A stretch of 64,000 nucleotides of DNA from an uncultured Chromatiales bacterium (GCA_964448285.1 CAYUWG010000006.1:13715-77714); one strand, 5' to 3'. Shown: positions 12,960 to 33,367, numbered from the stretch's first letter. The notes: a model not told the origin generated them from the letters alone. Translations and numbers: made by a program.

Positions 12960-12962
12960 TCC

Positions 12963-16214: not shown

Positions 16215-16233
16215 AATCATATCAGGAGTCTTT

Positions 16234-17559
16234 ATGGCAGAACAGAATCGCATCAACACCATCATCGTCGGAGCCGCAGGACGCGACTTCCACAATTTCA
16301 ACATGCTCTATCGCGACAACGAGCGTTACAACGTCGTCGCGTTCACGGCGAACCAGATCCCGAACATCGACGGAAGGAAATACCCCGCGTCGCTTGCGGG
16401 AAAGCTCTATCCCAAAGGCATTCCCATCCATAAGGAAGCGGAACTCGATGCGCTCATCGCAAAGCACGACGTTGAGGAGGTCGTCTTTTCGTACAGCGAC
16501 GTGGACTACGAGCACGTGATGCGCATCGGTGCCCGCGTGAATGCCGCTGGGGCGCATTTCAAAATGCTCGGCTCGACAAGGACCATGTTGAAAAGTTCGA
16601 AGCCGGTGATCGCCGTGTGTGCCGTTCGTACCGGTTGCGGGAAGAGCCAGACCACGAGGCGCGTCGCGAAACTTCTGCAGGAGATGGGAAAGAAAGTCGT
16701 TGCCGTGCGTCACCCGATGCCATACGGCGATCTCGCGAAGCAGGCGGTGCAGCGATTCGCTTCCGTTACAGATATGAAGAAGCACAAGTGCACCATCGAA
16801 GAAATGGAGGAATACGAACCGCACGTCGTGAGCGGAACCGTGATCTATGCCGGCGTGGATTACGAACGCATTCTTCGCGAAGCGGAGAAGGAAGCGGACG
16901 TGATCCTGTGGGACGGAGGCAACAACGACCTGCCGTTCTTCAAGCCGGACGTGCACATCGTCGTCACCGATCCTCACCGCGCAGGCGACGAACTGTACTA
17001 CTATCCCGGCGAAGCGAACCTGCGCATGGCCGACGTGGTTGTGATCAACAAGATCGACACGGCCGGACCTGAAGAGATTCACATTCTGCGGGACAACATC
17101 CGCTTCGCGAATCCGAAGGCCGTCGTCATCGATGCGGCCTCACCGATTCTCGTGAAGAACGCGGAGAAGATCGCCGGGAAGCGCGCACTGGTCGTTGAAG
17201 ACGGTCCGACGCTGACGCATGGCGAAATGAAATTCGGAGCGGGTGTGATCGCCGCACAAAAATTCGGCGCGAGCGAACTCGTCGATCCCCGCGCGTACGC
17301 AGTCGGCACGATCAAAGACACGTTCGCGAAGTATCCCGATATCGGCACGCTCCTCCCTGCGATGGGTTATGGCGACAAGCAGATCAAGGATCTCGAAAGC
17401 ACGATCAACAAAACGCCGTGCGACGTTGTCGTAATCGGAACGCCGATCGATCTTTCCCGCATCATTGAAATGAAAAAACCTGCCGTGCGCGTGACGTACG
17501 AACTTCAAGAGATCGGTGAGCCAAGCTTGAGGACGGTGTTAGGGAAGATGCAGAAATAG
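16234..17559 (+). CDS. P-loop NTPase of the COG2403 / cyclic-2,3-diphosphoglycerate-synthetase-like family (tentative)
   Basis: 441 aa. N-terminal Rossmann-like segment, then Walker A AVRTGCGKSQTT and Walker B-like ADVILWDGG. Its last ~20 codons are duplicated at 31979-32042. Confidence 0.55.
   Translation: MAEQNRINTIIVGAAGRDFHNFNMLYRDNERYNVVAFTANQIPNIDGRKYPASLAGKLYPKGIPIHKEAELDALIAKHDVEEVVFSYSDVDYEHVMRIGARVNAAGAHFKMLGSTRTMLKSSKPVIAVCAVRTGCGKSQTTRRVAKLLQEMGKKVVAVRHPMPYGDLAKQAVQRFASVTDMKKHKCTIEEMEEYEPHVVSGTVIYAGVDYERILREAEKEADVILWDGGNNDLPFFKPDVHIVVTDPHRAGDELYYYPGEANLRMADVVVINKIDTAGPEEIHILRDNIRFANPKAVVIDAASPILVKNAEKIAGKRALVVEDGPTLTHGEMKFGAGVIAAQKFGASELVDPRAYAVGTIKDTFAKYPDIGTLLPAMGYGDKQIKDLESTINKTPCDVVVIGTPIDLSRIIEMKKPAVRVTYELQEIGEPSLRTVLGKMQK
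17485..17548. repeat. Left copy of ~64-bp imperfect direct repeat (3' end of COG2403 gene); attL-like
   Basis: GTGCGCGTGACGTACGAACTTCA[A]GAGATCGGTGAGCCAAGCTTGAGGACGGTGTT[A]GGGAAGA recurs at 31979-32042 with 3-4 mismatches. Confidence 0.8.
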
Positions 17560-17678
17560 AGCGAGACCGAGGGTAACACTTTAGATTGGTATGCGAATGA
17601 CTTAAATCTAACTCTTTTCTGCGATTTTAAGATAAGACATCTCATTTCAAGACTTATTCAAGAAAAATAGAATGAGCC

Positions 17679-17708
17679 TTGACATTGACTCCGTCGATTT
17701 TCTATATT
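17679..17708 (+). promoter_or_regulatory. Candidate sigma70-like promoter (TTGACA-N18-TATATT) upstream of the first island gene
   Basis: TTGACA at 17679-17684, TATATT at 17703-17708, GGAG RBS at 17727-17730, ATG at 17739. Sits in AT-rich intergenic DNA. Confidence 0.35.
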
Positions 17709-17738
17709 TGTAATAGGTAATGGAAAACGGAGCTAAAC

Positions 17739-20327
17739 ATGAGCTTTTCTAACATCATCAAGCCACGGCCGGAAGTTCTTAAAAAAGATGGAATTGATAG
17801 CGTCATCGATATCGAGAATTTGCGTTCGAAGAGGTTAAAAGCAGTCGAAAGTAGGCCCAAGGACTTTTTCGATCTCACATATCCTACGAGCGACATCAGG
17901 TTTGTCGTAGAACATCTTCATCGAAGGTTCATGGGCAAAGAGGCTGGTGCAGGAACGTACTTGCTTGAAGGGTACAAAGGGAGTGGAAAATCTCATCTTG
18001 AATTGTTCGTGTACCATTTGCTCAATAGCCCAAATGATGCGCAGGAATGGCTGCTTCGAAACGATCTTGAGTGTGCGCTTCCAAAACAGCCGGTTACGGT
18101 TATTCGGAAATTCACCGATTTCCATATCGACACACTGTGGAACTGGATTTTTGACGAGTTGGGAGATCGGAAAAATATGGATCGCCCACCTGACTTGGAC
18201 CAATTTCGAAGAACACTGGCGGGTAGGCAGTTAATCCTGATTCTCGATGAATTGGAGATGGGTATCAAGAGCATTCCGAATGAGGCGAGCCGGGCACAAA
18301 ACCTCGCATTCATTCAAATGCTTAGCGAGGAGGCACAGAGATCGGAATCAGCCACGGTGACGGTGTTCGCATCCGTGTACGATTCAAACCAGGAAGCCGG
18401 GGCAACTCTTAAACGTGTCTCTCCGGTCAACATACGTTTCATGGAGCCGCAGGACAGAAGGAGAATCATTCAGCATAGATTGTTCGCTCAATTCGAAAAG
18501 CGTGAGACGAACCGGATAGATCAAGTCATCCAATCATATGTCAACGAATGGAAAAGGCATGATATCCAGGTTGATGAACGACACATCGAAAGCATGAGGG
18601 AGTCCTTTCCCTTCAGTCCTGAACTTCTTGATACAGTTTTGTACCGTGTTCCCGCAAAAGGTGGGTTTCAGGCGAACAGAGGAGCGCTCGGTCTTCTTGG
18701 AACGGTGGTTCGGCTAACACATAACAAAACCGATCTAATCACTACTGCGCATCTTGCTATCAGCGAACCTACGGTAAGAAATAAACTCGCCGACCTTGAT
18801 CCTGCCCAGAACTTCCTCGATTGCGCTGGCAGTGATTTCAATGATCTCAAAGAACTCAGTGTGGCTGAAGAAATCATTTCCAGTGTCCTTGTCGCATCAC
18901 TCGCGCCCGCTGGCCAGACCATCGGAATAACGGAGATGGAATTGAAGCGGCAAATCATCGAACCAGGGGATGACATCAATGTCTTCTCGAGTACGCTTCA
19001 TGCACTTGAAAAACTTGGGACCTACTTTCAACACCAAGAGGACAGATACTTTTTCGACACGCATGAGAAACCGAACGCCAAAGTGGAATATCGATCCCTA
19101 CGTATCGAAAGAGGCCGAGCGATCGACTATGCTTTGACAAAATGGAAGGTTGACCTTTTCAAAGATCCGGAAGCAGTAGTCTATCGTGATAGAGTTCAGG
19201 TTAACGAGGATCTTTCAATGAGGGACGCTAAGAGGATTAGGTTCGTCCTATCACCCTTTCGATTGAATGAAGATGAGAGAAGGAATGTCTTTCACGGTCA
19301 GCAGAACCAGAACATTATCCTACTCCTCGAACCGCGAACAACGACGTTCAATGCATTGGAGCACCCTGATATTATCAAATGGGGACAAAGGGCGCTTGCC
19401 GCCCAAGAGCTTATTCCCACAGCAGAATCAGACAGACGAAAGCACTATGAGAAGATTTTGGCGGAAGACACGAGATGGATCATCGATACGATCAAGCGGA
19501 CAGGGCTGCATCTGGTCTGGATACAGGACTATGGTGTCATGGAAGAGGAGAATCTTGGAAACGCGTCGACACGTGACGATGTCCTGAAACAATTGCGCGA
19601 CACAATATTTCCTCGTCAGCGCTTCGAGGAACATATCAAGGACCATATCAAGGATTTCTTCGGACAAACGGTTCGCTCCGTCGATGCAATATACAGGAAG
19701 ACGCTTGGCTACCCGATCAGAACAGCTGATTCAACTATCCCTGATGCTATTCGGGAATTATGCAAGTCTGGTGTCCTCGGTCTTATTCATGAACGAGCGA
19801 AAGCATGCGGAACGACCTTCGACCTATCATCGATGGAACTACTCGATGCGACGATTTCAGAGCCATTTGAGGAAGATCAGCCCGCAAAGATGCCCTTCAC
19901 TGAAGGTCTGGGATTCAAGGATCATACGGATACTAAATCGACTACGATCATCGATAAGTCACCCATTTACGATTCTCCTGTGTATTCGTACGAAACGCTC
20001 CAGTTACCGTTCACAACATCAATTCACTCACTACGACAGGGAATCGCAAGTCGTCTGGAGAATCACCCACAGTCGCAGATACACAAGGCAACGTTTTACA
20101 TTCTCATGAAGCATTCGGAGGTTGAACTTTCTTCTTTATCTGCTGCGGTTCGCGGCTCTCTGTCAGGAAAAGGTAGTATTGTCGCTGACATCACTATCAG
20201 TAGGGTTGGCGTCTTTTCCAAAGCTGCGATCGAACAGATGGTTGAGCAACTCCCGTCCTTCGAAGGCGCTCAGTACGGAATGGAATGCAAGATTGAAACT
20301 GTCAGGGAGACCGTATCAAGTGAATGA
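17739..20327 (+). CDS. P-loop ATPase, DUF499/BrxC(PglY)-like defence ATPase (tentative family assignment)
   Basis: 862 aa. Walker A LLEGYKGSGKSH near residue 80 and Walker B LILILDELE near residue 170, followed by a long non-enzymatic C-terminal region as in BREX BrxC-type ATPases. First gene after the AT-rich junction. Confidence 0.65.
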   Translation: MSFSNIIKPRPEVLKKDGIDSVIDIENLRSKRLKAVESRPKDFFDLTYPTSDIRFVVEHLHRRFMGKEAGAGTYLLEGYKGSGKSHLELFVYHLLNSPNDAQEWLLRNDLECALPKQPVTVIRKFTDFHIDTLWNWIFDELGDRKNMDRPPDLDQFRRTLAGRQLILILDELEMGIKSIPNEASRAQNLAFIQMLSEEAQRSESATVTVFASVYDSNQEAGATLKRVSPVNIRFMEPQDRRRIIQHRLFAQFEKRETNRIDQVIQSYVNEWKRHDIQVDERHIESMRESFPFSPELLDTVLYRVPAKGGFQANRGALGLLGTVVRLTHNKTDLITTAHLAISEPTVRNKLADLDPAQNFLDCAGSDFNDLKELSVAEEIISSVLVASLAPAGQTIGITEMELKRQIIEPGDDINVFSSTLHALEKLGTYFQHQEDRYFFDTHEKPNAKVEYRSLRIERGRAIDYALTKWKVDLFKDPEAVVYRDRVQVNEDLSMRDAKRIRFVLSPFRLNEDERRNVFHGQQNQNIILLLEPRTTTFNALEHPDIIKWGQRALAAQELIPTAESDRRKHYEKILAEDTRWIIDTIKRTGLHLVWIQDYGVMEEENLGNASTRDDVLKQLRDTIFPRQRFEEHIKDHIKDFFGQTVRSVDAIYRKTLGYPIRTADSTIPDAIRELCKSGVLGLIHERAKACGTTFDLSSMELLDATISEPFEEDQPAKMPFTEGLGFKDHTDTKSTTIIDKSPIYDSPVYSYETLQLPFTTSIHSLRQGIASRLENHPQSQIHKATFYILMKHSEVELSSLSAAVRGSLSGKGSIVADITISRVGVFSKAAIEQMVEQLPSFEGAQYGMECKIETVRETVSSE

Positions 20328-20346
20328 TAAGCGGAATATCTTCAAC

Positions 20347-21288
20347 ATGATGCTGCAGCCGGGAGACCGACTGCCTGCAATTCAGATGTGGTTGAAGCAA
20401 TATGTGTGGTCCATTGACCGCTTTTCAGCGATGCCACCGGAAGACTATCTGAGAGACGGTGAGGCATGTGTTTTCAACGTGGAGGAGTTGATGCTTATTG
20501 CGGCGCCGAGGGTTTATGATGAGCTTTATGGTGCTTCCGAACGAGCAAAGCGAATCGAACAGCAGATCGCACCTGACGAACCAACCGCATTCGTCGTGCT
20601 TGATGGTGCCTCGATTCGGGAGATTCCCTTGTTCGAACGTTTAGCTTCCGAAACGGGCTTCCAGATAGTGGAATCAAGCTACAACATTTCAGCTCTCCCA
20701 AGTGATACTCTTTCTTTCATCGTTCAACGTATCACGAGCAAAGAAGTAGCTCCAGTCCAACTTCCAACGAGAAAGGAACTTATAGAACGAGGATGGAGCG
20801 TGTGGTATTACGACGCTGCGATTCGGAATCATGAGCTGCCGAACGATGGAAGACATCTCCTTCTCTGGTCTGCATTTCCGGACGCGACGTATGGGAATTT
20901 TGAAGCCAGGGCTGCGAGCCATTTCACAGGGATCGTCACGCTGTATGAGACAGTCTGGAAGAACGTAGTGCAGGCGATACCGAACGGATACAGGATCATT
21001 CTGACCAGCGACCACGGATATGCGTATTTCGGGACCGGGCTGGATTCGAATCATACAGTTTCGGGTCCGCGAATTCTGGAACAAGCACGTTACAAGTTTT
21101 TTTCAGACAGTGACGACTTTCCTGAACCTGCAATCGACCTCTACACACTCCCAGAAAAGCGACTCGCTGTCCTGAAAGGTCGGGTGAAGAACAGGCCACA
21201 GGGACCGATGGGGAATCGCGTGTATAGGCACGGCGGAATGTCGTTGATGGAAATGCTCACACCATGGCTCGTACTGAAAAGAATGTGA
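20347..21288 (+). CDS. PglZ-like alkaline-phosphatase-superfamily protein
   Basis: Motifs FVVLDGASIRE (metal-binding Asp strand), ILTSDHGYAYFG (DHG) and YRHGGMSLMEMLTPW (HGG.S..E..P) are the alkaline-phosphatase-superfamily core as seen in PglZ. An alternative GTG start at 20320 overlaps the upstream stop. Confidence 0.65.
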   Translation: MMLQPGDRLPAIQMWLKQYVWSIDRFSAMPPEDYLRDGEACVFNVEELMLIAAPRVYDELYGASERAKRIEQQIAPDEPTAFVVLDGASIREIPLFERLASETGFQIVESSYNISALPSDTLSFIVQRITSKEVAPVQLPTRKELIERGWSVWYYDAAIRNHELPNDGRHLLLWSAFPDATYGNFEARAASHFTGIVTLYETVWKNVVQAIPNGYRIILTSDHGYAYFGTGLDSNHTVSGPRILEQARYKFFSDSDDFPEPAIDLYTLPEKRLAVLKGRVKNRPQGPMGNRVYRHGGMSLMEMLTPWLVLKRM

Positions 21289-21316
21289 TGAAACCGATGA
21301 ACGAAAAGGAACCATC

Positions 21317-21583
21317 ATGAAAACACTCCAGCATCAGTCGAAGAAAGTAAAGATCGGAACGGTTCTCGATGAGGACATCCTCCGAAGATTGAAAGAACGA
21401 GCCGCACGTGAAGGGCGCACTATCGCCGCGCTCATCGAGGAAGCCGTCCTCAAGTACGAACAGGAGGAAGCGTTTGCGCGTGAGATGCGGCTCCGCGCTC
21501 TTGAATCAGTCTTTGCCGTCAAATTCAATATCTCGCGGGAGGACTTCGAGGCGATCATGGAAGAGGATTACTACGACCAATGA
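21317..21583 (+). CDS. Ribbon-helix-helix (CopG/VapB-like) antitoxin
   Basis: 88 aa. ILRRLKERAAREGRTIAALIEEAV is a typical RHH fold sequence. Overlaps the downstream PIN gene by 4 bp. Confidence 0.7.
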   Translation: MKTLQHQSKKVKIGTVLDEDILRRLKERAAREGRTIAALIEEAVLKYEQEEAFAREMRLRALESVFAVKFNISREDFEAIMEEDYYDQ

Positions 21584-22089
21584 ACCTGGACGACGTGAGA
21601 AATAGGGACGTGATCATTCTCGACGCGAATATCTTCGTGTATGGAGCGCTGGAGATGTCCGAGCAATGTATGCGTTTGCTCCGGCGATGCGCGGCGCGGG
21701 ATGTAACCGGTGTCGTTGGGTTGCAACAGATGGCGGAGGTCATGCACCGCCTCATGATGATCGAAGCGCGTGAAAACAAATGGACGCCGGGAGCGAATCC
21801 GGCCAAGACCCTTGCCAACCACCCGGATCGCGTGCGCTCGCTCAACAGGTACGAGCAGGCAGTCAAGGGATTCTTTGCAAGTGGCTTTCGATTTGAAACG
21901 CTCATGAAGGAGGATTTCGGGATCGCGCTCTCGTTGCAGCGGCAATTCGGGCTGATGACGAACGATGCACTTCTGGCTGCCATGGCGGAAAGACTCCGCA
22001 TCCAATCCATTGCGAGCGCGGATACGTCATTCGCGAACGTGCGAGGGATGATGCTGTATCAACCGGATGACGTTGTATCAACCGGATGA
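21580..22089 (+). CDS. PIN-domain ribonuclease toxin (VapC-like)
   Basis: 169 aa. N-terminal VIILDANIFVY (first acidic residue) and later MTNDALLAA motif typical of PIN domains. Confidence 0.75.
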   Translation: MNLDDVRNRDVIILDANIFVYGALEMSEQCMRLLRRCAARDVTGVVGLQQMAEVMHRLMMIEARENKWTPGANPAKTLANHPDRVRSLNRYEQAVKGFFASGFRFETLMKEDFGIALSLQRQFGLMTNDALLAAMAERLRIQSIASADTSFANVRGMMLYQPDDVVSTG

Positions 22090-22111
22090 TATGAAATAAG
22101 ACAGGCAGACA

Positions 22112-22531
22112 ATGAAGGAAAAAGAGGAAATATATCTTGAGGAACGAAGGATGCTGGTTCAGGCGGAGCAAGATGCTTATCAGCAGTTCGATAAAACGAT
22201 CATTACAATTGCAAGCGGAGGATTAGGACTCTCACTTCTTTTCTTGAAAGATATTCTCGACAAGGATCAAATCACTAGTCAATGGCTCCTGATTGTCTCA
22301 TGGTGTTCATTCATCCTTTCGATTCTTTCTACTCTCTTGTCATTTATGGGAAGCCAGCGCGCCTTTAGAAGACAAATAGAAATTACCGATGAATTGTATT
22401 CAAAGAATCAGACTCATGATTCTAATAACAAGCCAGCAAAAGCCACTGAGAAGTTGAACTACTTTTCGATTGGTTTCCTGATCTTAGCGATTATTCTCCT
22501 CGTCATTTTTGTTTCACTAAACTTTCAATGA
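22112..22531 (+). CDS. Hypothetical membrane protein (AT-rich cassette)
   Basis: 139 aa. Charged coiled N-terminus followed by 3 TM helices. Local GC about 38% versus about 55% in surrounding genes. Confidence 0.45.
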   Translation: MKEKEEIYLEERRMLVQAEQDAYQQFDKTIITIASGGLGLSLLFLKDILDKDQITSQWLLIVSWCSFILSILSTLLSFMGSQRAFRRQIEITDELYSKNQTHDSNNKPAKATEKLNYFSIGFLILAIILLVIFVSLNFQ

Positions 22532-22540
22532 GGTTTTATC

Positions 22541-22744
22541 ATGTCTGAAGACAAAAACGAAATAATTACAGTTGCAAATGGTAGGGTTCCATCTCTCTCG
22601 CACCCTCTTCTCAGCGATGCTAAAAAACCGCGTCTTGAGGGAGCCGTCCCTCCAAAACCTCCGGTGCCGCTGAAACCGACAACAAGCGAACCACAACCGG
22701 AGGGTGGAAGTCAGGGAAGCCCGCCGAAGGAGAAGAAGGAATGA
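22541..22744 (+). CDS. Hypothetical small Pro-rich protein
   Basis: 67 aa (PPKPPVPLKPTTSEPQPEGG). Overlaps the next ORF by 4 bp, with a GAGG-like RBS. Could be spurious. Confidence 0.3.
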   Translation: MSEDKNEIITVANGRVPSLSHPLLSDAKKPRLEGAVPPKPPVPLKPTTSEPQPEGGSQGSPPKEKKE

Positions 22745-23379
22745 CTTTGAGAAAAGGATTTGACCTCTATGAATACACAGGGATTCTCGTCCCTGGTTAC
22801 TTACTGTTGGTAGGAATAGCTCTTTTGCATCCTGAAGCGAAATCCTTCCTATTGTCTGTTAATTTCACAGTTGGCCATTTTGGGCTTTCGGTACTCCTTG
22901 CGTATTCCGCAGGGCATCTTCTACAAGCACTGGGAAACATGATCGAATATCTGTGGTGGGAACTCTATGGTGGTATGCCTACCGATTGGGTAAGAACTGG
23001 AAAGCATTTCCTCCTTGCACCAGATCAGATCGTAATGCTGAAGAACAAGATGTCAGCTATACTTGGACTTTCGGTCAAGAATGAACTGCAAGAATATTCG
23101 AAGGAGGAATGGTCCTCTATAATCCGGCAAGTATATGCGGCAATTGATGGAGATAACCGTTCAAAGCGTGTCGATATCTTCAACGGTCAATATGGCTTGA
23201 ACAGAGGTATAGGAGCTTCCTTTCTATTCCTTCTTGTTGTCACGTTGCTTTACTATGGGCTCTCCTCGTGGAGTATCCAGATTTGGCTATGTGCAGGATT
23301 CGTTGTTTCGATTTACAGGATGCATCGGTTTGGTAGGAATTATGGACACTCTCTTTTCATGTCTTTTATTATCGAATAA
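22741..23379 (+). CDS. Hypothetical polytopic membrane protein (AT-rich cassette)
   Basis: 212 aa with 4-5 TM segments. No recognisable family. Confidence 0.45.
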   Translation: MTLRKGFDLYEYTGILVPGYLLLVGIALLHPEAKSFLLSVNFTVGHFGLSVLLAYSAGHLLQALGNMIEYLWWELYGGMPTDWVRTGKHFLLAPDQIVMLKNKMSAILGLSVKNELQEYSKEEWSSIIRQVYAAIDGDNRSKRVDIFNGQYGLNRGIGASFLFLLVVTLLYYGLSSWSIQIWLCAGFVVSIYRMHRFGRNYGHSLFMSFIIE

Positions 23380-23482
23380 TAACAGTTTGTACTGAGCGTG
23401 GAAGATTTGTATAATTGCTTCTTATGTTGTATATTCATAATATGAAACAAATATTTATTACCCAAAATACAGGAGATAAGAA

Positions 23483-24424
23483 ATGAACATTCCAAAAAAG
23501 CGAACACGATTTCGTGCATATCAACTAAAGACTGAGGGGTCCTCATTTTCGTACTTTGATGGAGACGCATTTACACTTATCGAAGCGCGCTGCAATGAAC
23601 ATAATTGTTCGAATATATGTGATGAATTGGGGGAATGCGACAAGAGTAGAATTGATTCTCTTCATATTACGAGTTGGGATGAAGACCATTGTGCTTTTAA
23701 GGAGTTAGAGGAAATACTCGACACCTTCACGCCAAAAAGGATTGAATATCCTGGCTACGAACCGAAAACTGAAAATGGTAAGCATTGTTTAAGTGCAATT
23801 TATTCATACAATAAGAAAGAATGGAGATGGATAGTAAAAGTAAATCCAGAATATATTCGCGGTTTGAAGAAGGCGGAAGCGCTTGGCTATCAAGACATTT
23901 TGTACAATCCATTGGTTATCATGGAGACGTCGAACGACAATTCGACTATTAAATTCTTTCGAAAGGGATCATTTAACGTAATAAGCCTCGGTGATGTTGA
24001 GAGCCCGATGATTCGCTCGAGACTTGAAAGGCTCAGTATTTTCAATTCTGAGATAGACGTCATGATATTATCCCATCACGGCGCAGATAATGGCTTTACA
24101 ACCAAATCATTTTTAAGCAAAACAAAACCAACTGTGGCTATAGCTTCAGCTAATTACGAAAATGAATATGAACATCCAAGAAAGAGTATTCGAAACGATC
24201 TGTACGAATTGAACATACCAATCTTTACGTCTAAAACGGGAGATGTGATAATCGAATCCACAGGAGATCACACAGGCTCATATAGAGTCACAAACTTAAA
24301 GAGTGATTCGACGGATATATCGTCGCAAAGGGATTTTAAATCAAAGAAGGCATCCAAATTGACTCATAATGCGGATTCGATTCGAAATCATTATAATCCC
24401 AAGAGACCGTTTTATAGGTTCTGA
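23483..24424 (+). CDS. MBL-fold metallo-hydrolase, ComEC-C-terminal-like (possible nuclease)
   Basis: 313 aa. DVMILSHHGADNGFTTKSFLSKTKPTVAIASANYENEYEHPRKSIRNDLYELNIPIFTSKTGDVIIE parallels the ComEC/MBL pattern V.HHGS......FL..V.P..A.IS.G..N.YGHP. AT-rich. Confidence 0.5.
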   Translation: MNIPKKRTRFRAYQLKTEGSSFSYFDGDAFTLIEARCNEHNCSNICDELGECDKSRIDSLHITSWDEDHCAFKELEEILDTFTPKRIEYPGYEPKTENGKHCLSAIYSYNKKEWRWIVKVNPEYIRGLKKAEALGYQDILYNPLVIMETSNDNSTIKFFRKGSFNVISLGDVESPMIRSRLERLSIFNSEIDVMILSHHGADNGFTTKSFLSKTKPTVAIASANYENEYEHPRKSIRNDLYELNIPIFTSKTGDVIIESTGDHTGSYRVTNLKSDSTDISSQRDFKSKKASKLTHNADSIRNHYNPKRPFYRF

Positions 24425-24435
24425 CTACTTACCCC

Positions 24436-24642
24436 ATGATCCGCGCCATCGAAGAGTATTTCCCCATCGTGGACATCAACCGCCTTGCGGTGCCGGAGCG
24501 AAATGCGTTCAAACCGATCTATCAGATGCACAAGGGGTTTGCGCGGCGTTCGGTTATGGTTTTTCGTACGATCCTGTTGGGCGCGATGAAACCTGTCAAC
24601 CCAGATATTATGGAGGAGTTCTACGGGACGGAGAGACGATGA
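24436..24642 (+). pseudogene. Decayed in-frame duplicate of the first ~65 codons of the DUF1156 methyltransferase gene
   Basis: MIRAIEEYFPIVDINRLAVPERNAFKPIYQMHKGFARR... versus MTRAIEEYFPIVDINRLAVPERNAFKPIYQMHKWFARR... at 25609. Roughly 85% nucleotide identity over ~190 bp (my manual alignment). Terminates at an ATGA overlap with the next gene. Confidence 0.7.
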
Positions 24643-24983
24643 AACGAAGCACATCCCAAAGAAAATCGCAACTCGAGCGCCTACCTCAATCGGTTCGTGA
24701 TATCTTCTGGGAATACGAAAAAGGGTCCATCTCATGGCAGAAGGACCGCGACCTCATCATCAAGAAAATCTTACATCACGGGTCGTGGGACGCCCTGTGT
24801 TGGATGAGGTCGGTCATCGATGACGAATCGCTTCGAACGTGGTTGATCGATCATGATGGTGCGGGTCTCGATGCGAAGCGATTGCGCTACTGGCAACTCA
24901 TCCTCAACCTGCCGGTGTCCAACGTGAACAAGTGGATTCAAACATACCGGGATAATCCCTGGAGCCGGAGGATGACGGGATGA
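24639..24983 (+). CDS. Small protein encoded upstream of and overlapping the AbiEii-type toxin gene; putative cognate antitoxin/regulator
   Basis: 114 aa (MKRSTSQRKSQLERLPQSVRDIFWEYEKGS...). Its start overlaps the stop of the methylase fragment and its stop overlaps the AbiEii start (ATGA). Family not recognised; shorter than classical AbiEi. Confidence 0.45.
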   Translation: MKRSTSQRKSQLERLPQSVRDIFWEYEKGSISWQKDRDLIIKKILHHGSWDALCWMRSVIDDESLRTWLIDHDGAGLDAKRLRYWQLILNLPVSNVNKWIQTYRDNPWSRRMTG

Positions 24984-25612
24984 AGATCCACGAGGAGGTA
25001 TTGTCGCCGCGGCAAAAGAACCTTGCCCGTCGCATCGGGCCGGCACTTTCCCGACAGGGTTTTTATCTCGCAGGTGGGACGGCATTGGCTCTCATGGTGG
25101 GACATCGGCATTCTGTTGACTTCGACTACTTCATCGACGATCCGATGAACGATCCTCAATCCGTCATCGAGACCTTGCGCAAGGTCGGTTGTAATCCTAT
25201 CGTGGAGATTCTGGAGAAAGGCACTGTTCACGTGACGTGGTCGAGCGTCAGGATGTCTTTCATTACGTACCGCTATCCGATGCTCCAGCCTTTCGTTGAA
25301 TGGAAAGAAGGTGGATGTCGGCTTGCTTCGCTGGACGATATCGCATGCATGAAGCTTTCCGCTCTTGCGCAACGTGGTTCGAAGAAAGACTTCATCGATG
25401 CATTCGCGCTGATCCGGAAACACAAACCGCTTTCGGATCTCCTGCAACTCTATCAAAAAAAATTCGATGTCTCTGAGATTGTTCATGTGCTCTATGGATT
25501 GAGCTATTTCGACGACGCAGACAAAGAGCGTTCACCCAGGATGCTGTGGGATGTCTCATGGAAAGAGATAAAGAAAAAGCTCACAGAACACGTAAGGAAC
25601 CTCTCCCCATGA
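24980..25612 (+). CDS. Nucleotidyltransferase of the AbiEii/AbiGii toxin family
   Basis: 210 aa. FYLAGGTALALMVGHRHSVDFDYF is the family's characteristic GG.AL..HR.S.D.D motif region. Stop overlaps the methylase start (ATGA). Confidence 0.7.
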   Translation: MKIHEEVLSPRQKNLARRIGPALSRQGFYLAGGTALALMVGHRHSVDFDYFIDDPMNDPQSVIETLRKVGCNPIVEILEKGTVHVTWSSVRMSFITYRYPMLQPFVEWKEGGCRLASLDDIACMKLSALAQRGSKKDFIDAFALIRKHKPLSDLLQLYQKKFDVSEIVHVLYGLSYFDDADKERSPRMLWDVSWKEIKKKLTEHVRNLSP

Positions 25613-28600
25613 CCCGCGCCATTGAAGAATACTTCCCCATCGTGGACATCAACCGCCTCGCGGTGCCGGAGCGCAATGCGTTCAAGCCGATCTACCAGAT
25701 GCACAAGTGGTTTGCGCGACGTTCGTCGTCGGTGTTTCGCGCGATACTGCTTGCGGCAATGAAGCCCGCCGGTATGGACATCATGAAGGAATTTTACCTG
25801 GATCACACGAACGATCCCGACACGAATGGGAAGGTGATACTCGACCCGTTCATGGGCGGTGGCACCACCGTCGTGGAGGCACTACGGCTTGGCTGCAACG
25901 TGATCGGCATCGACCTCAATCCCGTCGCGTGGTTCATCGTGAAGACGGAAGTGGAACCGGTGGACATCGACAGCTTGAAAGCCTCGTTCGAACGGCTCGC
26001 GAATCGCACAGTGGACTGGTCGGGCAAACCGCTGAAGGAAACACTGCTCGATCTGTACAAAACCGTGTGCCCGGGTTGCGGCGGTGAAGCGGATATCATC
26101 TACACGTTCTGGGTAAAATCCGCGCCCTGCACGACGGGAACTTGTAAAACGCAGACGCCGCTGTTTTCTGACTTCATCATCGCACAGAAGAAACCGTCCA
26201 TTCGGTACTCCCCTGACTGCACCTGTCCTTCCTGTGCGAAGGAATTCGACTGGGAGCGCGAACCCGCTTCGCTGATCGCTGAAGAAAAACTGATGGTGTC
26301 TGCGACGGCTTATTCCGCCGGTGATGGAAGGCAGAATGCACGATGGGCCTTTTCGGCTGACAAGAAAGTGACCTGTCCGTGGTGTAGGATGGATGTTAGG
26401 CCGAAACCCAAATCGCTCAAACTCAAACGCAAGAAGATTCCGCTCAATGTGTTGCTCTGCCCGCACTGCGAGGAAGTCTGGCAGTACCGTGGTGAGTTGC
26501 CGGATTCCGTTGCATGCCCGACGTGCGCACATGAATACGATCCAACGAAAGGCAACATCCCCGGCACGGGGAAGTTCATCTGTCGCGGCACGTGCAACGG
26601 CAACGTCGATACCGTGATTACCGCCATTCGCACGCTTCCTGAAGAAAGACTCTTGCCCATCCGCCTGTATGCGATGGAAGGCTACTGCCCCCGCTGTGCG
26701 AAAAAACCGGGCGGGAAAGAAACTCCGATGGTTGTTAACGAACCGATGTTCGAATATCAACCCTCTCCCGGTCACTCCGTGACACCCCTCTCCCGAACCG
26801 GGAGAGGGGACGGGGGTGAGGGTCTTCTCTGGAAAAACTCCGGCAAGTTCTTCAAGCGCGTTTCACCCGTTGACCTTGCCCGGTACCTGGAAGCAAGTTC
26901 TATCTGGCAGAGAGAGAAAAAGAATCTACCGCACCCGGTTTCCGAAATACCAGTCGGTGAAAAAACGAAGTCTGGCTTACATTCACATCACTACCGCTAT
27001 TGGTGGCAGATGTTCAATGACAGACAGTTGTTGGCGCTGAGCACGCTACTGAAAGGGATTGGGGAGGAGGGTGAGCAGGTAGCAAAGGAGATGTTATTAA
27101 CAGCGTTTTTCAGTGCGCTTGAGACAAGTAATTTGTTTACTAGATATCACTCTACGAGGTTTTTGTCCGCTGGAGTTTTTGCCCGTCATGATTACCAACC
27201 GAAGGTGACAATTTGCGAAAACAACGTCTGGGGTACGCTATATGGAAATCAAACATATAACAATACGTTTGAGAAGGTTATTGATGGAAAATCTTTCGCA
27301 CTTAATCCTACTGATCTAAAATATTGTGATGAAAAATATAAACCGATAGCTTCCCATGATTCACTTTCCAACCTCGAGCTGGATGAAAATGTCCTATTAA
27401 AAGCTAAATCATCAACCAATATGGATGAGATAGAAAACTCTTCCATAGAATTTGTTATTACAGATCCACCATACGCCGGCAATGTCAACTACGCGGAGTT
27501 GTCGGACTTCTTCTATGTCTGGCTTCGTCTCCTGCTGAAGGAGAAGTATCCGCAGTTTCTTCCGGAGTATGTGCCAAAGGCGGAGGAGATTATCGAGAAC
27601 AGAACGCGGGGAAAATCATCGAAGGACTTCAAGGAGGGACTCCGCGCCGTCTTCCGCGAAGGGCATCGCGTCTTGAAAGACGACGGATTGCTTGTATTCA
27701 CCTTCCATCACGCTGAAGGCTCTGCCTGGGAGGCACTGCTCGAATCGGTCTGTGAAGCGGGCTATTACATCGAAGCCGTGTATCCCATACACGGGGAGGC
27801 GGAGAACTCACTGCACCTGATGAACAACGAAGCCATCTCCTACGATCTCATACACGTCTGCAAGAAAGCAACCGCCCAGCAGACCTGGGCGAAGCGCTCC
27901 TGGGCAGGCGTACGGCACGATATCAGGAAGAGGGCACGCGAAGAAGCGAGGCTCATCGAGTCCGGCAGGTACGGCAACGAGCCACTCCCTGCTGCTGATA
28001 TCAACATTCTCCTCATCGGAAAATGCCTCGAGCTGTACAGCAAGCACTACAACCGCATCGTGGATCATGAAGACAAGCCGATACCTCTGCATCAGGCGTT
28101 GGAAGAAATCAAGATGCTCGTCGATCAGATCGTCGCGCGCGAGAAGCCGCTCCCGCCGGAACTCGAAGAGGGCGTCGATCCCGTCTCCTACGTCTATCTC
28201 ACTGCTCTTGCCGGTCAACGGGAAATCCAGAGCGATCACGTCAGCAAGCAGACGCGCGGCATCATCGAAACGTCCGAGTTGAAGGAACATGGCCTGCTCA
28301 TCAAAGGTCGCGCGAAGCGCGGACGTACGTTCGAGATCAAACAACCGGTTGAGCGCCTCAACGACCTGAAGAAGAAGTTCTACGACGACGGGGTGTTGAC
28401 GCAACTCCCGCTGTTCGGTGAGAACGGTTCACCGCTGCCCAAGGGCCTGCTCTTCGTGGATTGCGTGCAACTGCTGTTGGGTCTCGCGGAGAACGGTGAG
28501 AACGTGCTACCGTGGCTCGACCGTCTTCGTGGTTTGCGTCCGCAACTTCGCGCCGCGCTTTCATATCTGCATGACCGGAATATCTTCACCGTTCCCTCCA

Positions 28601-28647
28601 GGAAAATCCTCTCCCTCATCGACGAGCGTACGCTCTTCAATACGTGA
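25609..28647 (+). CDS. DUF1156-type adenine-specific DNA methyltransferase with multiple Zn-ribbon inserts
   Basis: 1013 aa from ATG 25609; the track's upstream extension is unlikely. N-terminus MTRAIEEYFPIVDINRL. Motif I DPFMGGGTTVVEA lies before motif IV FVITDPPYAGNV. Five Cys-x-x-Cys pairs lie between them (CPGCGG, CPSC, CPWC, CPHC, CPTC). Confidence 0.8.
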   Translation: MTRAIEEYFPIVDINRLAVPERNAFKPIYQMHKWFARRSSSVFRAILLAAMKPAGMDIMKEFYLDHTNDPDTNGKVILDPFMGGGTTVVEALRLGCNVIGIDLNPVAWFIVKTEVEPVDIDSLKASFERLANRTVDWSGKPLKETLLDLYKTVCPGCGGEADIIYTFWVKSAPCTTGTCKTQTPLFSDFIIAQKKPSIRYSPDCTCPSCAKEFDWEREPASLIAEEKLMVSATAYSAGDGRQNARWAFSADKKVTCPWCRMDVRPKPKSLKLKRKKIPLNVLLCPHCEEVWQYRGELPDSVACPTCAHEYDPTKGNIPGTGKFICRGTCNGNVDTVITAIRTLPEERLLPIRLYAMEGYCPRCAKKPGGKETPMVVNEPMFEYQPSPGHSVTPLSRTGRGDGGEGLLWKNSGKFFKRVSPVDLARYLEASSIWQREKKNLPHPVSEIPVGEKTKSGLHSHHYRYWWQMFNDRQLLALSTLLKGIGEEGEQVAKEMLLTAFFSALETSNLFTRYHSTRFLSAGVFARHDYQPKVTICENNVWGTLYGNQTYNNTFEKVIDGKSFALNPTDLKYCDEKYKPIASHDSLSNLELDENVLLKAKSSTNMDEIENSSIEFVITDPPYAGNVNYAELSDFFYVWLRLLLKEKYPQFLPEYVPKAEEIIENRTRGKSSKDFKEGLRAVFREGHRVLKDDGLLVFTFHHAEGSAWEALLESVCEAGYYIEAVYPIHGEAENSLHLMNNEAISYDLIHVCKKATAQQTWAKRSWAGVRHDIRKRAREEARLIESGRYGNEPLPAADINILLIGKCLELYSKHYNRIVDHEDKPIPLHQALEEIKMLVDQIVAREKPLPPELEEGVDPVSYVYLTALAGQREIQSDHVSKQTRGIIETSELKEHGLLIKGRAKRGRTFEIKQPVERLNDLKKKFYDDGVLTQLPLFGENGSPLPKGLLFVDCVQLLLGLAENGENVLPWLDRLRGLRPQLRAALSYLHDRNIFTVPSRKILSLIDERTLFNT

Positions 28648-28656
28648 GGCAATGCC

Positions 28657-29079
28657 ATGTCCTACATACTCATAGAACACAACCATCTCTCACCGCCCCG
28701 CTTGGCAGGTCAGGGTTTTAAGGCAAACACGCACCGTATCGGATTTCTGGACTTCCTCCGTGAATTGGACAGGGAAGAATTTCCATTCCACGAAAGCAGT
28801 CACCTGCTTGTTGTTGGCCTTGAGGACGTACTGCTTTTTTCGCGTCCCCACATGCACTCCATTGCGTTAGACATCCGAAATCGATTGAAGCGTGTCGCGA
28901 ATGATTTTGAACGATGTCCTCATGTTCAAATCGTTTTCATGAAAGGGCATCTCGTCGCAGGCGCAGAGCTTCGGTTGGAAATGAAACCTGAGCCATTGCC
29001 TCTGCACCTCATTTTCGGAACGCCACAACGGATGGAAAACGGCTTCGTCTATTACTTGGCGCCGTTCAACCTGAGTTAA
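28657..29079 (+). CDS. Small conserved-looking protein between methylase and helicase (DUF3780-like position; unassigned)
   Basis: 140-aa ORF 10 bp after the methylase stop, same strand. No motif recognised. Confidence 0.45.
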   Translation: MSYILIEHNHLSPPRLAGQGFKANTHRIGFLDFLRELDREEFPFHESSHLLVVGLEDVLLFSRPHMHSIALDIRNRLKRVANDFERCPHVQIVFMKGHLVAGAELRLEMKPEPLPLHLIFGTPQRMENGFVYYLAPFNLS

Positions 29080-29115
29080 GTGGAATCAGAGTAGGAAAAG
29101 GATACAAGGACAGAT

Positions 29116-31971
29116 ATGAATACATCGGCGTTTACCGACAGAACATCGGAAAAGGGCACACCCTATAGTCCCGGCCAACGTGTCCGAGTAGCCGGACGAG
29201 AAGATCTCGGAATAGGCGAAGTGCTACGTGTGAGTGATATCTACGGCGTGTATCAGGCGGACATTATCTTTGAAACCAGTGGATTACGACGATTGGAAAG
29301 CTTCCCTGTCGAGCGTCTCGAGCATGCCCCCGACTTATGGGAGCGATTGAAGAAGGGAATGTTCGACGATCCGAATGACGTACTCTTCAAACAACTCGCG
29401 TTTCAGTTTCCATTGCAAAACAAGGGAGGTCAACTCTCGAACAGTCGAACGCAATTGTTACCTCATCAGATTCTGCTGACTCGGGACGTGGTTGCATCAC
29501 ACCGTCGTCGCTATCTCATCGCTGATGAAGTGGGGCTGGGGAAAACGATCGAGATCGGCATGATCCTTAGGGAACTGGAGTCCCGGCGTGAAGCGTCACG
29601 CATGTTGATCATTGCGCCGGCAGGCCTGATCAAAAACTGGCAACAGGAATTACGGGATGCATTTCGACTGCATTTCGAAATTCTTGGGATCGACTTCATG
29701 GACCACGGCTCAACAACGTGGGAAATGAAAAGCAAGGTGATCGTTTCCATCGATACGATCAAGCGCAGCCCGAGGCTCGATCGTTTGCTTGCGGGTCCTC
29801 GTTGGGACGTGATCGTTTTCGATGAAGCCCACCATTTGAGTCGCAATCGGTATGGAAAGAAAATCGTCCCAACTCAAAACTATCGTCTTGCCGAATCCCT
29901 TCGTTCTCACACGAGGGATTTCCTTCTCCTTTCTGCAACACCCCATCAGGGAAACACCTATCAGTTCTGGTCGCTCATCCAACTCTTGAACGATTCGCTG
30001 TTCGATTCCGAAGAGGCCATGATCCAGCATCGAGGGCTTTTGAATCAGGTCATGATTCGTCGAACGAAACGGGAGGTAACGGATCGTCACGGGAATCCTA
30101 TTTTCATGCGTCGTCAGGTTCATACAGAACGCTTTCTGCAATCCGCACGGGAGCGAATGTTCTATGAGAAGCTTACGGAATACCTCAAGGAGGGGTACTC
30201 CGTTGCCCGGATCGGTGAAACCAAAGTGACGACAGAGGAACGCGCGATCGGGTTTGTCATGACGACGTTTCAGAAGATCATGTCCTCCAGCATTCGTGCT
30301 ATCCGGCAGGCATTGCGTCGAAGATTGCTCGTATTGCTCATCCGCCATTATATGGAATTAGAGCAGAAGAGATCGAAGCGTGGGCCTGACGAGACTATAG
30401 ATCGGAAGATTCTGGAAGTGCAGGATGAAATGCGCATGATTACTTCACATATCCTTGGCATTGATAATATCGCTGCCAATACAGGCGACATCGATGCCTT
30501 CATAGCGCAGACCAGACAAAAGGTGAGTCGCAAATTTCTCGTCGAAGAAAGCACACTGTGGTCCCTTGACGCTGACGAAGAGGCAGAGGAAGAACTCTAT
30601 GCCACGGTGAATATTCCCGATGAGATTCGGAAAGTCCGTTCGCTCATCTCCGTTATTCCTGACGGTCGGGATAGGAAATTTGAAACGCTCATCAACGCAA
30701 TCGAATCTATCCGGCAGGATAACCCATCCGAGAAGTTCGTGATCTTTACGCAGTACATCGAGACCTTGAAATTTCTCGAGGAGGAGTTGGGGGCGCTTTA
30801 TGGAAAACAAAAGATTGCGATCATTCGGGGTGGTCCACTGGAAAACAAGATTGAAGCTGTAGAAAGGTTCTGGGATGAACGAGGTGCACAATTCCTTATC
30901 TGCACATCGGCTGGTGGAGAAGGGATCAATCTTCAGATCGGAAGGATCCTTTTCAATTACGATTTGCCCTGGAATCCTATGGCGGTTGAACAACGCATAG
31001 GGCGCATTCACCGCTTCGGGCAGAAGGAAACGGCACAGATATATAATCTCATTGCCGAGGATACTGTAGAAGAACATATCTATGACCTTCTGAACAGGAA
31101 GTTGAGGGAAATTGCGTCACAAATCGGTAAAGTAGATTCATCCACAGGTGAGCCGCGTGAAGATTTCCGCAATGAAATACTGGGATTTCTCGGTTCCAGT
31201 CCCAGCTATCTCGATCTGTACAAGCGTGCTATCTTGGACAGAGATTACCGACGAACGGAACACGAGATTGAAGAAGCGATACGGAAAGCGCGTGAAGCAA
31301 GTGAAGCGCTTTCATCCTTCACTCAAGATCTCGATTCATTCGATTTGCGCGATTATCTCGCGATGGAGGGATCGTTTACACTTGATCACCTAATGGAATT
31401 CATTTTTCAAGCAGTACTCCGATTGGAAGGCGCTGTTCTTCCCCGTGATGAGTTTCATTCCATACAGACCCCTCCCAGTCTTTTACGGTACCCAAGTGTT
31501 TCCGCGAAGTATGACACTGTCACTTTCGATCGTGACGCGGCTATGAGAAAAAAGAGTGTCGAATTCCTTGGTCTCGGACATCCTTTCGTAGATGCAGTGG
31601 TAGAGCATTTTCAACAGTCTGCATTTCCAGGCGACGTGAGCTGTATCTCGCGTTTGAGTCATGAACAACCCTATACCGTCTTCCTTACCTTGATCACGAT
31701 CGGTTTGGAAGATGGTACTGTCCACCAGGAATTGAATCTCATGCGGGTAACACAATCGGGTGATGCACAGGTGTTGCCTGATCACTGGCTCTTTCAGCGG
31801 TTCGAACAGCGCGATTCCTTGTTCGAACCAGTGGAGAGTCTTTTTGATTTCATGTCAATCAGGATGTCGTACGAATCAGCAATCGGCGCTATTCTGACTC
31901 AAATGAAAGCATCAATGATCAATCCTATCAGCGCACGGTTGCGATTGCTTGGAGTATTGAACGTCGCTTGA
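29116..31971 (+). CDS. SNF2/RapA-family helicase (DISARM DrmD-like position)
   Basis: 951 aa. Motifs I LIADEVGLGKTIE, II VIVFDEAHHL, III LLLSATPHQG, V ICTSAGGEGINLQ and VI YDLPWNPMAVEQRIGRIHRFGQ. Confidence 0.88.
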   Translation: MNTSAFTDRTSEKGTPYSPGQRVRVAGREDLGIGEVLRVSDIYGVYQADIIFETSGLRRLESFPVERLEHAPDLWERLKKGMFDDPNDVLFKQLAFQFPLQNKGGQLSNSRTQLLPHQILLTRDVVASHRRRYLIADEVGLGKTIEIGMILRELESRREASRMLIIAPAGLIKNWQQELRDAFRLHFEILGIDFMDHGSTTWEMKSKVIVSIDTIKRSPRLDRLLAGPRWDVIVFDEAHHLSRNRYGKKIVPTQNYRLAESLRSHTRDFLLLSATPHQGNTYQFWSLIQLLNDSLFDSEEAMIQHRGLLNQVMIRRTKREVTDRHGNPIFMRRQVHTERFLQSARERMFYEKLTEYLKEGYSVARIGETKVTTEERAIGFVMTTFQKIMSSSIRAIRQALRRRLLVLLIRHYMELEQKRSKRGPDETIDRKILEVQDEMRMITSHILGIDNIAANTGDIDAFIAQTRQKVSRKFLVEESTLWSLDADEEAEEELYATVNIPDEIRKVRSLISVIPDGRDRKFETLINAIESIRQDNPSEKFVIFTQYIETLKFLEEELGALYGKQKIAIIRGGPLENKIEAVERFWDERGAQFLICTSAGGEGINLQIGRILFNYDLPWNPMAVEQRIGRIHRFGQKETAQIYNLIAEDTVEEHIYDLLNRKLREIASQIGKVDSSTGEPREDFRNEILGFLGSSPSYLDLYKRAILDRDYRRTEHEIEEAIRKAREASEALSSFTQDLDSFDLRDYLAMEGSFTLDHLMEFIFQAVLRLEGAVLPRDEFHSIQTPPSLLRYPSVSAKYDTVTFDRDAAMRKKSVEFLGLGHPFVDAVVEHFQQSAFPGDVSCISRLSHEQPYTVFLTLITIGLEDGTVHQELNLMRVTQSGDAQVLPDHWLFQRFEQRDSLFEPVESLFDFMSIRMSYESAIGAILTQMKASMINPISARLRLLGVLNVA

Positions 31972-31978
31972 TTCCCCA

Positions 31979-32042
31979 GTGCGCGTGACGTACGAACTTC
32001 AGGAGATCGGTGAGCCAAGCTTGAGGACGGTGTTGGAGAAGA
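31979..32042. repeat. Right copy of the ~64-bp imperfect direct repeat; displaced original 3' end of the COG2403 gene (attR-like)
   Basis: In the gene's frame it would encode ...VRVTYELQEIGEPSLRTVLEKKFGSE*, an alternative C-terminus to the ...TVLGKMQK* read at 17559. Confidence 0.8.
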
Positions 32043-32266
32043 AGTTCGGAAGCGAATAAGTGAGGTGATAGATAAAACAAGGCGGATCCTTTTACTCGAT
32101 CGAAGCCAGCAGATAAATCCCTGCGAGAATGACGAGCACTCCGCACACTCTGCGTAGCCATACCATGAAAGACGAAAAGGGCTGGACGCCTCCCTATGGT
32201 TAATGGAGAAGTGGCTCGCTACCGTCATCGATTCGATTTACATTGAGCAATGGATGATGGAAGCCA

Positions 32267-33153: not shown

Positions 33154-33367
33154 ACGGCTGCATCACCTGACATGCGCATTCGAGGTTTGAGAGACAGAAG
33201 GAAGCCTTTACTTGCTCAACCTTCGATTCTGGATTTGGGAATGCAGCGAAGCTACTTCGGGTTAACTGAAACTCCATTGCACACATCAACGACCCTTTTG
33301 ATTTGTTCGAGCTTTGCTCTATGTTTTCGGTCGGTAAAGGTTCTCATCACTCTTGGAACGAGCCTGA

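Follow-up and report, generated by a model that had tools for sequence, protein, structure and literature searches.

A Chromatiales genome island probably carries an intact Type-3 DUF499-centred BREX-related defence operon with inserted cargo

Which defence system is encoded where a PglZ-like protein, a DUF1156 methylase and an SNF2 helicase stand together without the usual partners of BREX or DISARM? The locus lies in a 64,000-nucleotide stretch of DNA from an uncultured Chromatiales bacterium (GCA_964448285.1 CAYUWG010000006.1:13715-77714; the window), in which a 14.4-kb island occupies positions 17560-31978. An initial annotation, made from the sequence alone, described the island as a modification-based anti-phage gene set resembling a BREX/DISARM hybrid and possibly representing an undescribed variant. 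Profile searches, a fold model and a comparison of related loci were used to follow up this description. They indicate with good confidence that the island is a single intact Type-3 DUF499-centred BREX-related (BR) defence operon into which extra cargo has been inserted. All island genes are on the plus strand and their coordinates are given in Table 1.

The seven genes for the ATPase, PglZ, the ribbon-helix-helix (RHH) protein, the PIN-domain protein, the methylase, the DUF8076 protein and the helicase make up a unit, and many bacterial phyla share its gene order. About 80 non-redundant loci (80 from a one-genome-per-species scan together with L001, L003 and L004) were scored with the window proteins, counting for each gene the loci with enough sequence; two loci, L012 and L052, were excluded from the alignments. 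The loci span Ignavibacteriota, Verrucomicrobiota, Desulfobacterota, Nitrospirota, Planctomycetota, Acidobacteriota, Binatia and others. The ATPase gene is directly upstream of PglZ in 66/68 loci, and the methylase (46/48), the helicase (47/48) and the 140-residue protein (43/48) are encoded downstream of it. This co-occurrence is far above chance, and the catalytic motifs of all the enzymes are kept family-wide. Three PglZ homologue contexts each show the same order of ATPase, short PglZ, a 79-90-residue protein, a 167-residue PIN protein, methylase, DUF8076 protein and SNF2 helicase, and loci L001-L005 are arranged in this way. The core open reading frames (ORFs) of the window match their relatives in length: 862 residues compared to 861-869 for the ATPase, 313 to 315-324 for PglZ, 169 to 167 for PIN, 1013 to 974-1020 for the methylase, 140 to 131-139 for DUF8076 and 951 to 943-948 for the helicase. 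The recurrence of the gene set in the same order across genomes, which the initial annotation proposed to test, is seen across phyla, and the identification in that annotation of the ATPase, the PglZ-like protein, the DUF1156 methylase, the 140-residue ORF and the SNF2 helicase is borne out by the profile searches and the PglZ fold model.

The ATPase has a Walker A motif (GYKGSGKS, residues 78-85) and a Walker B motif (ILILDE, residues 166-171) that are kept in 68-71/72 relatives. Its best-scoring profiles are HmaC (E 2.7e-19) and DUF499 (E 3e-17) in PADLOC; the PADLOC scan gave no BrxC match and marginal SspC matches. The NCBIfam DUF499_antiphage model is also hit (E 3.6e-21) but distantly, with 75 bits against a cut-off of 1200, and one relative has a weak PF04465 match. 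The protein is the counterpart of BrxC, HmaC and MtsA, and by analogy with them would act as a loader or scaffold for the methylase.

The PglZ gene starts at an ATG at 20347, and the gene predicted on the identical Logan contig begins there too. A 388-residue ORF that opens with a TTG at 20122 and overlaps the ATPase gene was rejected as the PglZ gene in favor of this start; the relatives are 313-326 residues long. The Pfam scan of the 388-residue ORF containing PglZ returned no match, and the PADLOC PglZ matches are marginal and cover only model positions ~520-725. The family has at least 467 homologues of ~320 residues, many of them with PF08665, and the closest relatives are ~52% identical and come from metagenome-assembled genomes (MAGs) of several phyla. 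Comparison of the family profile with PDB sequences gave marginal matches to PorX and BREX PglZ (E 0.017-0.24), and a fold search was therefore needed to settle the assignment. An alignment-based AlphaFold model (pLDDT 91.6) has the PorX PglZ domain (E 4e-10) and the Acinetobacter BREX PglZ (9zn5_B, E 1.6e-6) as its top Foldseek matches, ahead of NPP enzymes. All 80 PglZ relatives have the alkaline-phosphatase-type residues D86, S89, D222 and H223, and 79/80 have H295. The protein is predicted to be a metal-dependent phosphodiesterase of the alkaline-phosphatase/NPP superfamily and is a candidate restriction effector by analogy with its relatives.

The methylase is above the Pfam cut-off for both N6_N4_Mtase (54 bits) and DUF1156 (28 bits), and PADLOC matches it to HmaB (E 3.5e-39) and PglXI (E 5e-27). 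Motif I (LDPFMGGG) is at residue 79 and the catalytic DPPY motif, present in 51/51 relatives, is at residue 620. The insert between these two motifs holds 16 cysteines arranged as six CxxC and two CxnC pairs, not the five CxxC pairs first counted, which corresponds to about four Cys4 clusters; the cysteines are kept in 41-51/51 relatives. Residues 551-600 (window 27256-27406), just upstream of DPPY, are the most variable stretch of the protein with a mean identity of 0.23, and their G+C content is 0.33 compared to 0.55 for the gene. Residues 351-400 form a second hypervariable stretch that is rich in gaps. These stretches may be horizontally exchanged specificity segments in an enzyme that would mark self DNA and set the site specificity of the system. 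The 140-residue protein that follows belongs to the DUF8076 family; it is probably a degenerate P-loop (inactive STAND, iSTAND) small subunit of the published type and would serve as a co-regulator or sensor.

The helicase contains all superfamily 2 (SF2) motifs, including GLGKT, DEAH, SAT and QRIGRIHR, and motifs I, II and VI are kept in 48-49/49 relatives. Pfam identifies SNF2-rel_dom (E 4.5e-20), Helicase_C (E 5e-19) and a weak RapA_C; PADLOC matches BrxHI/BrxHII (E 3e-105), HmaA (E 4e-96) and DrmD (E 5e-86); and the NCBIfam matches are RapA (E 4.7e-64) and DrmD, the latter with 332 bits against a cut-off of 610. Domain-profile scans of the helicase found no PLD and no PD-(D/E)XK domain, and residues 680-951 had no nuclease match. 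The HmaA model aligns to residues 110-673 only, and the PLD_Helicase and phospholipD_antiphage models align to residues ~472-673 only (483-672 for PLD_Helicase).

This composition corresponds to a class that has a name. Type-3 DUF499-centred BR systems, found in 569 taxa, were described, computationally only, by Rakesh & Krishnan (Nucleic Acids Res 2026, PMC12839542; bioRxiv October 2025). Their ATPase is of the DUF499 family, their PglXI-like methylase has additional Cys4 fingers in some cases, and their BrxHII-like helicase no longer has a nuclease; an active PglZ encoded on its own is nearly universal. In 82% of the taxa there is also a small inactive-STAND protein, and the neighborhoods have no conserved stand-alone nucleases and few auxiliary effectors (PMC12839542). 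The window has the DUF499-type ATPase, the PglXI-like methylase with a zinc-finger insert, the nuclease-less BrxHII-like helicase, a separate PglZ with an intact metal site and a small, fast-evolving extra protein, and the family is spread widely over phyla. The gene set very probably belongs to this class, as matched by its published composition rather than by member sequences. Two features differ. One clade has RHH-PIN between PglZ and the methylase in 37/37 loci, and the adjacent junction is a busy cargo site; the window methylase has 16 cysteines in about four clusters where the paper mentions one or two Cys4 fingers. Clade-wide retention of RHH-PIN is thus a point absent from the published description, and this fixed clade and the cargo junction qualify its statement about few effectors. 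The initial annotation was right that the genes form a modification-based, defence-type set related to BREX, with a BrxC-like ATPase, a PglXI-like methylase, a BrxHII-like helicase and PglZ. It went too far in proposing an undescribed variant, and having itself named a clean match to a known system type as evidence against that proposal, it leaves the claim of novelty lowered by its own standard. Its hybrid reading does not hold either, since the SNF2 helicase is of the BrxHII/RapA-like kind common to all BR systems and not an import from DISARM.

Two sister systems with experimental support place the window genes in context. MANTIS (formerly Gao_RL / Gao_29; BR type 2; bioRxiv 10.64898/2026.09.23.753747) has a homologous AAA+ ATPase (MtsA), a DUF1156 methylase (MtsC), an SF2 helicase core (MtsD) and a small accessory protein, and some MANTIS operons include an Arc/CopG-type (RHH) regulator. 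The AAA+ ATPase of MANTIS loads the methylase at asymmetric 6-bp sites, a small co-factor triggers hemimethylation, and restriction needs all components and the ATPase activity of the helicase-nuclease (10.64898/2026.09.23.753747). The window differs in that its helicase lacks the PLD nuclease, its NCBIfam scores are ~6-16% of the cut-offs, and its small protein is encoded after the methylase whereas that of MANTIS is encoded before it. PglZ takes the place of the DUF3780 protein (MtsB); none of the small island ORFs matches DUF3780, and PglZ and RHH-PIN are located between the ATPase and the methylase instead. All three core proteins also match the models of Hma (HmaA/HmaB/HmaC; BR type 1), and other defence genes are inserted inside Hma operons as well. 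The C-terminal PD-(D/E)XK nickase domain of HmaA is essential for defence in the Halomonas meridiana study (PMC11232893), whereas the window helicase has no C-terminal PD-(D/E)XK (NOV_C) nuclease, and Hma has no PglZ, DUF8076 protein or RHH-PIN. The eight-gene mad1-mad8 set of MADS is absent from the island apart from a local mad2 match (E 3.7e-9) over the S-adenosylmethionine-binding motif.

A mechanism can be proposed by extension from these systems, of which MANTIS is the best experimental model. The ATPase would be the loader of the methylase at a short asymmetric motif, and adenine methylation of the host genome at this motif would be the mark of self, with the DUF8076 protein in the role of a sensor or co-activator. 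When incoming DNA is unmodified, the recognition complex that serves methylation would also recruit the SNF2 motor, and the free PglZ phosphodiesterase would be the restriction effector that replaces the PLD or PD-(D/E)XK nuclease fused to the helicase in other BR types. RHH-PIN could add a back-up abortive effector and/or a repressor and stabilizer. Several points weigh against taking the island as a working Type-3 BR operon of this kind. The mechanism is borrowed from MANTIS and BREX, and the locus itself is known from its sequence. The literature searched contained no experimental test of any Type-3 BR system, and the nuclease activity of PglZ is known from Type-1 BREX (literature cited in PMC12839542) and not from the short form. 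Matches to the named defence families are far below the NCBIfam curated cut-offs, and such remote homology leaves room for a different mechanism. Expression of the operon could suffer from the 3.5 kb inserted between PIN and the methylase, and free-standing homologues of RHH-PIN in ordinary contexts mean that the pair could be a selfish or stabilizing module only.

The RHH and PIN proteins were identified by Pfam (RHH_1, E 9.8e-6; PIN, E 4.5e-8), and the pair had no match in the PADLOC scan. The two genes overlap by 4 nucleotides, which suggests translational coupling, and PIN residues D15, E53, D129 and D148 are kept at >=90% across 42 loci. A small RHH gene that overlaps a PIN gene retaining its acidic catalytic residues is the arrangement of VapBC-type pairs, and on this basis PIN is predicted to be an active RNase with RHH as its putative partner, an antitoxin and/or a repressor. 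RHH-PIN comes right after PglZ in 40/71 loci. On an unweighted pair group method with arithmetic mean tree of the concatenated ATPase and PglZ, PIN presence requires a single parsimony change, whereas 1000 shuffles of the labels required 20 changes on average and never fewer than 14. The pair is found in 37/37 loci of one clade that covers several phyla and in 0/26 of the others, and each locus agrees with its nearest neighbor. The correlation of pairwise identities with those of PglZ is about as strong for PIN (rho 0.73) as for the ATPase (0.78) and the helicase (0.68). Because of this single gain, the complete retention and the divergence in step with PglZ, RHH-PIN is regarded as a clade-defining component and not as a stray insert. 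Free-standing pairs of an 80-residue protein and a PIN protein occur among metabolic genes with no BR system nearby in L087 (5049-5806) and L088 (8762-9513); their PIN proteins are 40-46% identical to that of the window, and NCBI names one of them a VapC toxin. Like VapBC pairs, the window pair has four acidic PIN residues and free-standing homologues, but it is fixed at one position in a seven-gene defence operon and inherited with it. It looks like a VapBC-type pair captured once by the ancestor of the clade and then kept.

What the pair does is the point on which the alternatives are most evenly matched. RHH-PIN is most likely a second-line abortive effector and/or an operon repressor and stabilizer. 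That it is instead a selfish or stabilizing VapBC hitch-hiker with no role in defence is a serious competitor, if a somewhat improbable one: related pairs stand alone in L087 and L088, the pair adjoins the junction where AbiE, MNT-HEPN and Fic modules come and go, and PADLOC does not recognize it. Hitch-hiking toxin-antitoxin pairs are expected to show repeated gain and loss, as the other cargo does, whereas this pair was acquired once, has been retained without exception over several phyla at the same place after PglZ, and diverges with PglZ as tightly as the core ATPase. At the other end is a doubtful proposal, put forward tentatively, that the PIN-containing clade is a distinct seven-gene BR subtype in which RHH-PIN is an obligatory working part. 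RHH would repress the operon or restrain PIN, in the way the Arc/CopG protein MtsR may do for some MANTIS loci; release of the PIN RNase would provide a second, abortive line of defence once a phage blocks or overwhelms the PglZ/helicase arm; and the conserved 5' end of the methylase gene would be the handle for exchange of toxin cassettes between systems.

Three other explanations concern the island as a whole. It is very improbable that the genes are a variant of canonical BREX type 3 or a hybrid with DISARM class 1 instead of a DUF499-centred system. BREX type 3 (BrxF, BrxC, PglXI, BrxHII, PglZ, BrxA) shares the PglXI-like methylase, the BrxHII-like helicase, the catalytic domain of PglZ and an ATPase related to BrxC; a degenerate P-loop protein like BrxF/BrxB may be a further common element, and the helicase match to DrmD points towards DISARM. 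The ATPase, however, scores with HmaC/DUF499 and not with BrxC, placing it on the DUF499 branch; the gene order is different; PglZ is a bare 313-residue domain without flanking domains where canonical BREX types 1-6 have a multidomain protein of ~700-900 residues; and the helicase reaches about half of the curated DrmD cut-off. No BrxA, BrxB, BrxF, BrxL or PglX was found among the island ORFs scanned, nor any DrmA, DrmB (DUF1998), DrmC or PLD protein of the DISARM class 1 set, which agrees with the initial annotation in that the island is not a canonical BREX or DISARM locus. Serial hotspot insertions could alternatively have left a decayed mosaic whose genes no longer make one system, and the foreign cargo and methylase pseudo-fragment inside the operon, the lack of an integrase and the frameshifts that fill L012 and L052 could be read in this way. 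This too is very unlikely, in that all seven core ORFs are full length compared to relatives, every catalytic motif is intact, many relatives that are otherwise intact have inserts at the same junction, and such inserts are known from Hma operons too. The least probable explanation gives methylase, RapA-like helicase and ATPase a role outside immunity, as a module for epigenetic, transcriptional or repair functions. The helicase does resemble the RNA-polymerase-associated RapA and the island has no canonical endonuclease, but the experimentally validated relatives (HmaA and MANTIS) are anti-phage/anti-plasmid systems, the island is strain-variable with a G+C content below that of its flanks, CBASS-like and Hachiman-like genes adjoin relatives, and the cargo consists of abortive-infection-type toxins. 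The defence interpretation is well founded in homology and context.

The class is already published, and the value of the locus is in testable details (the minimal PglZ, the clade-fixed RHH-PIN and the cassette-exchange junction), not in discovery. The function of PglZ and the way in which BREX blocks phage DNA are long-standing questions. Type-3 BR systems have a bare 313-residue PglZ where sister systems have a PLD or PD-(D/E)XK nuclease, and they therefore offer a minimal, genetically tractable test of PglZ as a restriction effector. The window has one such system, complete and apparently intact, whose boundaries are defined. The comparison of sister clades that have or lack a fixed RHH-PIN is a clean natural experiment on whether toxin-antitoxin-like RNases are integrated immunity effectors or passengers.

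The true insertions in the window are confined to 22.1-25.6 kb (3.5 kb) between PIN and the methylase, and this junction upstream of the methylase is a recurrent hotspot for swapped toxin/defence cassettes. Extra DNA of 0.4-4.4 kb is present between PglZ or PIN and the methylase in many relatives. Seven loci, mostly of the clade without PIN, have a ~550-residue Schlafen/AlbA_2 + HATPase_c_4 protein at the PglZ-methylase junction (L029, 7723-9372; L045, L049, L066 and L086; shorter copies in L042 and L053). Other cargo at this position includes MNT-HEPN (L032), Fic (L058 and L067), a RelA/SpoT-like protein (L081) and AAA_21 (L072). In five loci of the PIN-containing clade (the window, L007, L017, L021 and L074) the DUF6922-AbiEii pair directly precedes the methylase. 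Toxin-antitoxin modules had been described as interleaved with the defence genes; this holds for DUF6922-AbiEii which, like the AT-rich cassette, is cargo, whereas RHH-PIN is a fixed component of its clade.

The AT-rich cassette is outside the core system and may be an uncharacterized accessory defence module. It is missing from most relatives, and a homologue of its 212-residue ORF is found at the same junction in L018. This membrane protein has a weak PADLOC match to Csx27 (E 5e-5), and the 313-residue metallo-beta-lactamase-fold protein has weak PADLOC matches to PDC-M48B (E 7e-8) and LmuA (E 4e-5) and an NCBIfam match to the ComEC/Rec2 C-terminal region (E 1.4e-11). A truncated copy of the methylase 5' end, overlooked in the initial annotation, follows the cassette. 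The repeat at 24432-24624 is 80% identical to 25605-25797, and blastn aligns the fragment to the window's own methylase with 84.6% identity over 162 nucleotides; the 68-residue fragment is also called as a gene on the Logan contig. The first ~190 nucleotides of the methylase gene are unusually conserved in DNA across phyla (70-86%). Conservation of this segment together with a truncated second copy is read as a recombination handle for cassette exchange, and the fragment would be the scar of an exchange by recombination at the conserved 5' segment.

Table 1. Coordinates of the island features, counted from the first nucleotide of the window.
Feature	Position	Strand	Length	Remarks
Target gene, cyclic-2,3-diphosphoglycerate-synthetase-like	16234-17559		441 aa	
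Left repeat copy	17485-17548			Within 3' end of target gene; att-like island boundary
Promoter-like site TTGACA-18-TATATT	17679-17708	+		11/12 matches; ~30 nt upstream of ATPase start
DUF499-like AAA+ ATPase	17739-20327	+	862 aa	Profile matches, Walker motifs
Stand-alone PglZ	20347-21288	+	313 aa	Predicted phosphodiesterase
RHH protein	21317-21583	+	88 aa	
PIN-domain (VapC-like) RNase, predicted	21580-22089	+	169 aa	
AT-rich cargo cassette	22112-24424	+	139, 67, 212 and 313 aa	Four ORFs, third a membrane protein, fourth of metallo-beta-lactamase fold; G+C 0.38-0.46
Truncated methylase 5'-end copy (DUF1156 N-terminus)	24436-24642	+	68 aa	Between AT-rich cassette and AbiE pair
DUF6922 protein	24639-24983	+	114 aa	AbiEi-position antitoxin-like partner of AbiEii; Pfam DUF6922 E 5e-7; cargo
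AbiEii-family nucleotidyltransferase toxin	24980-25612	+	210 aa	Pfam AbiEii E 3.5e-15, PADLOC AbiEii E 5.6e-7; cargo
DUF1156/PglXI-like N6-adenine DNA methylase	25606/25609-28647	+	1013/1012 aa	Two possible starts; profiles, motifs
DUF8076 protein	28657-29079	+	140 aa	
SNF2-family helicase, BrxHII/RapA-like	29116-31971	+	951 aa	No fused nuclease domain; profiles, motifs
Right repeat copy	31979-32042			Starts 8 nt past helicase stop codon

The borders of the island are marked by a 64-nucleotide direct repeat with 95% identical copies, which confirms the earlier placement of the island between the stop of the target gene at 17559 and a copy of the 3' end of that gene at 31979. This arrangement is the signature of an island inserted at the 3' end of a gene. 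The right repeat copy leads into an alternative C-terminus and stop codon, and the sequence past it was presumably the original 3' end of the target gene. The 441-residue target weakly and distantly resembles cyclic 2,3-diphosphoglycerate synthetase (E 9e-7), and it exceeds the cut-off of no family in Pfam or NCBIfam. No integrase or recombinase was found within or around the island. The G+C content changes from ~0.57 outside to 0.38-0.52 inside. The site listed upstream of the ATPase is the best promoter-like match in the region; such sites are no more numerous overall than expected from shuffling, which makes it weak evidence for a promoter.

An independent assembly (L006, Logan SRR22452313, 14,522 bp) has the island as a separate contig that corresponds to window 17511-32032 and ends within both repeat copies. 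Excision was considered as an explanation and set aside for the simpler one of an assembly break at a 31-nucleotide exact stretch inside the repeat. In L003 (contig_79827) the system is part of a classic defence island, with a patatin and DncV-like (CBASS-type) pair upstream and HamA with a helicase (Hachiman-type) downstream. The whole operon is split into many short ORFs in L012 and L052, both Ignavibacteria MAGs, which could be due to pseudogenization or to long-read assembly errors. The region upstream of the window island (11958-17559) encodes two ornithine/aspartate carbamoyltransferase paralogues, a carbamate-kinase-family protein and a class-III aminotransferase, followed by the 441-residue target. 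Past the right repeat the G+C content is still low (0.44-0.50) for ~3.5 kb (32000-35500), where an outer-membrane beta-barrel protein is the only ORF product with a family match; this stretch may be the remnant of an older island or simply variable DNA.

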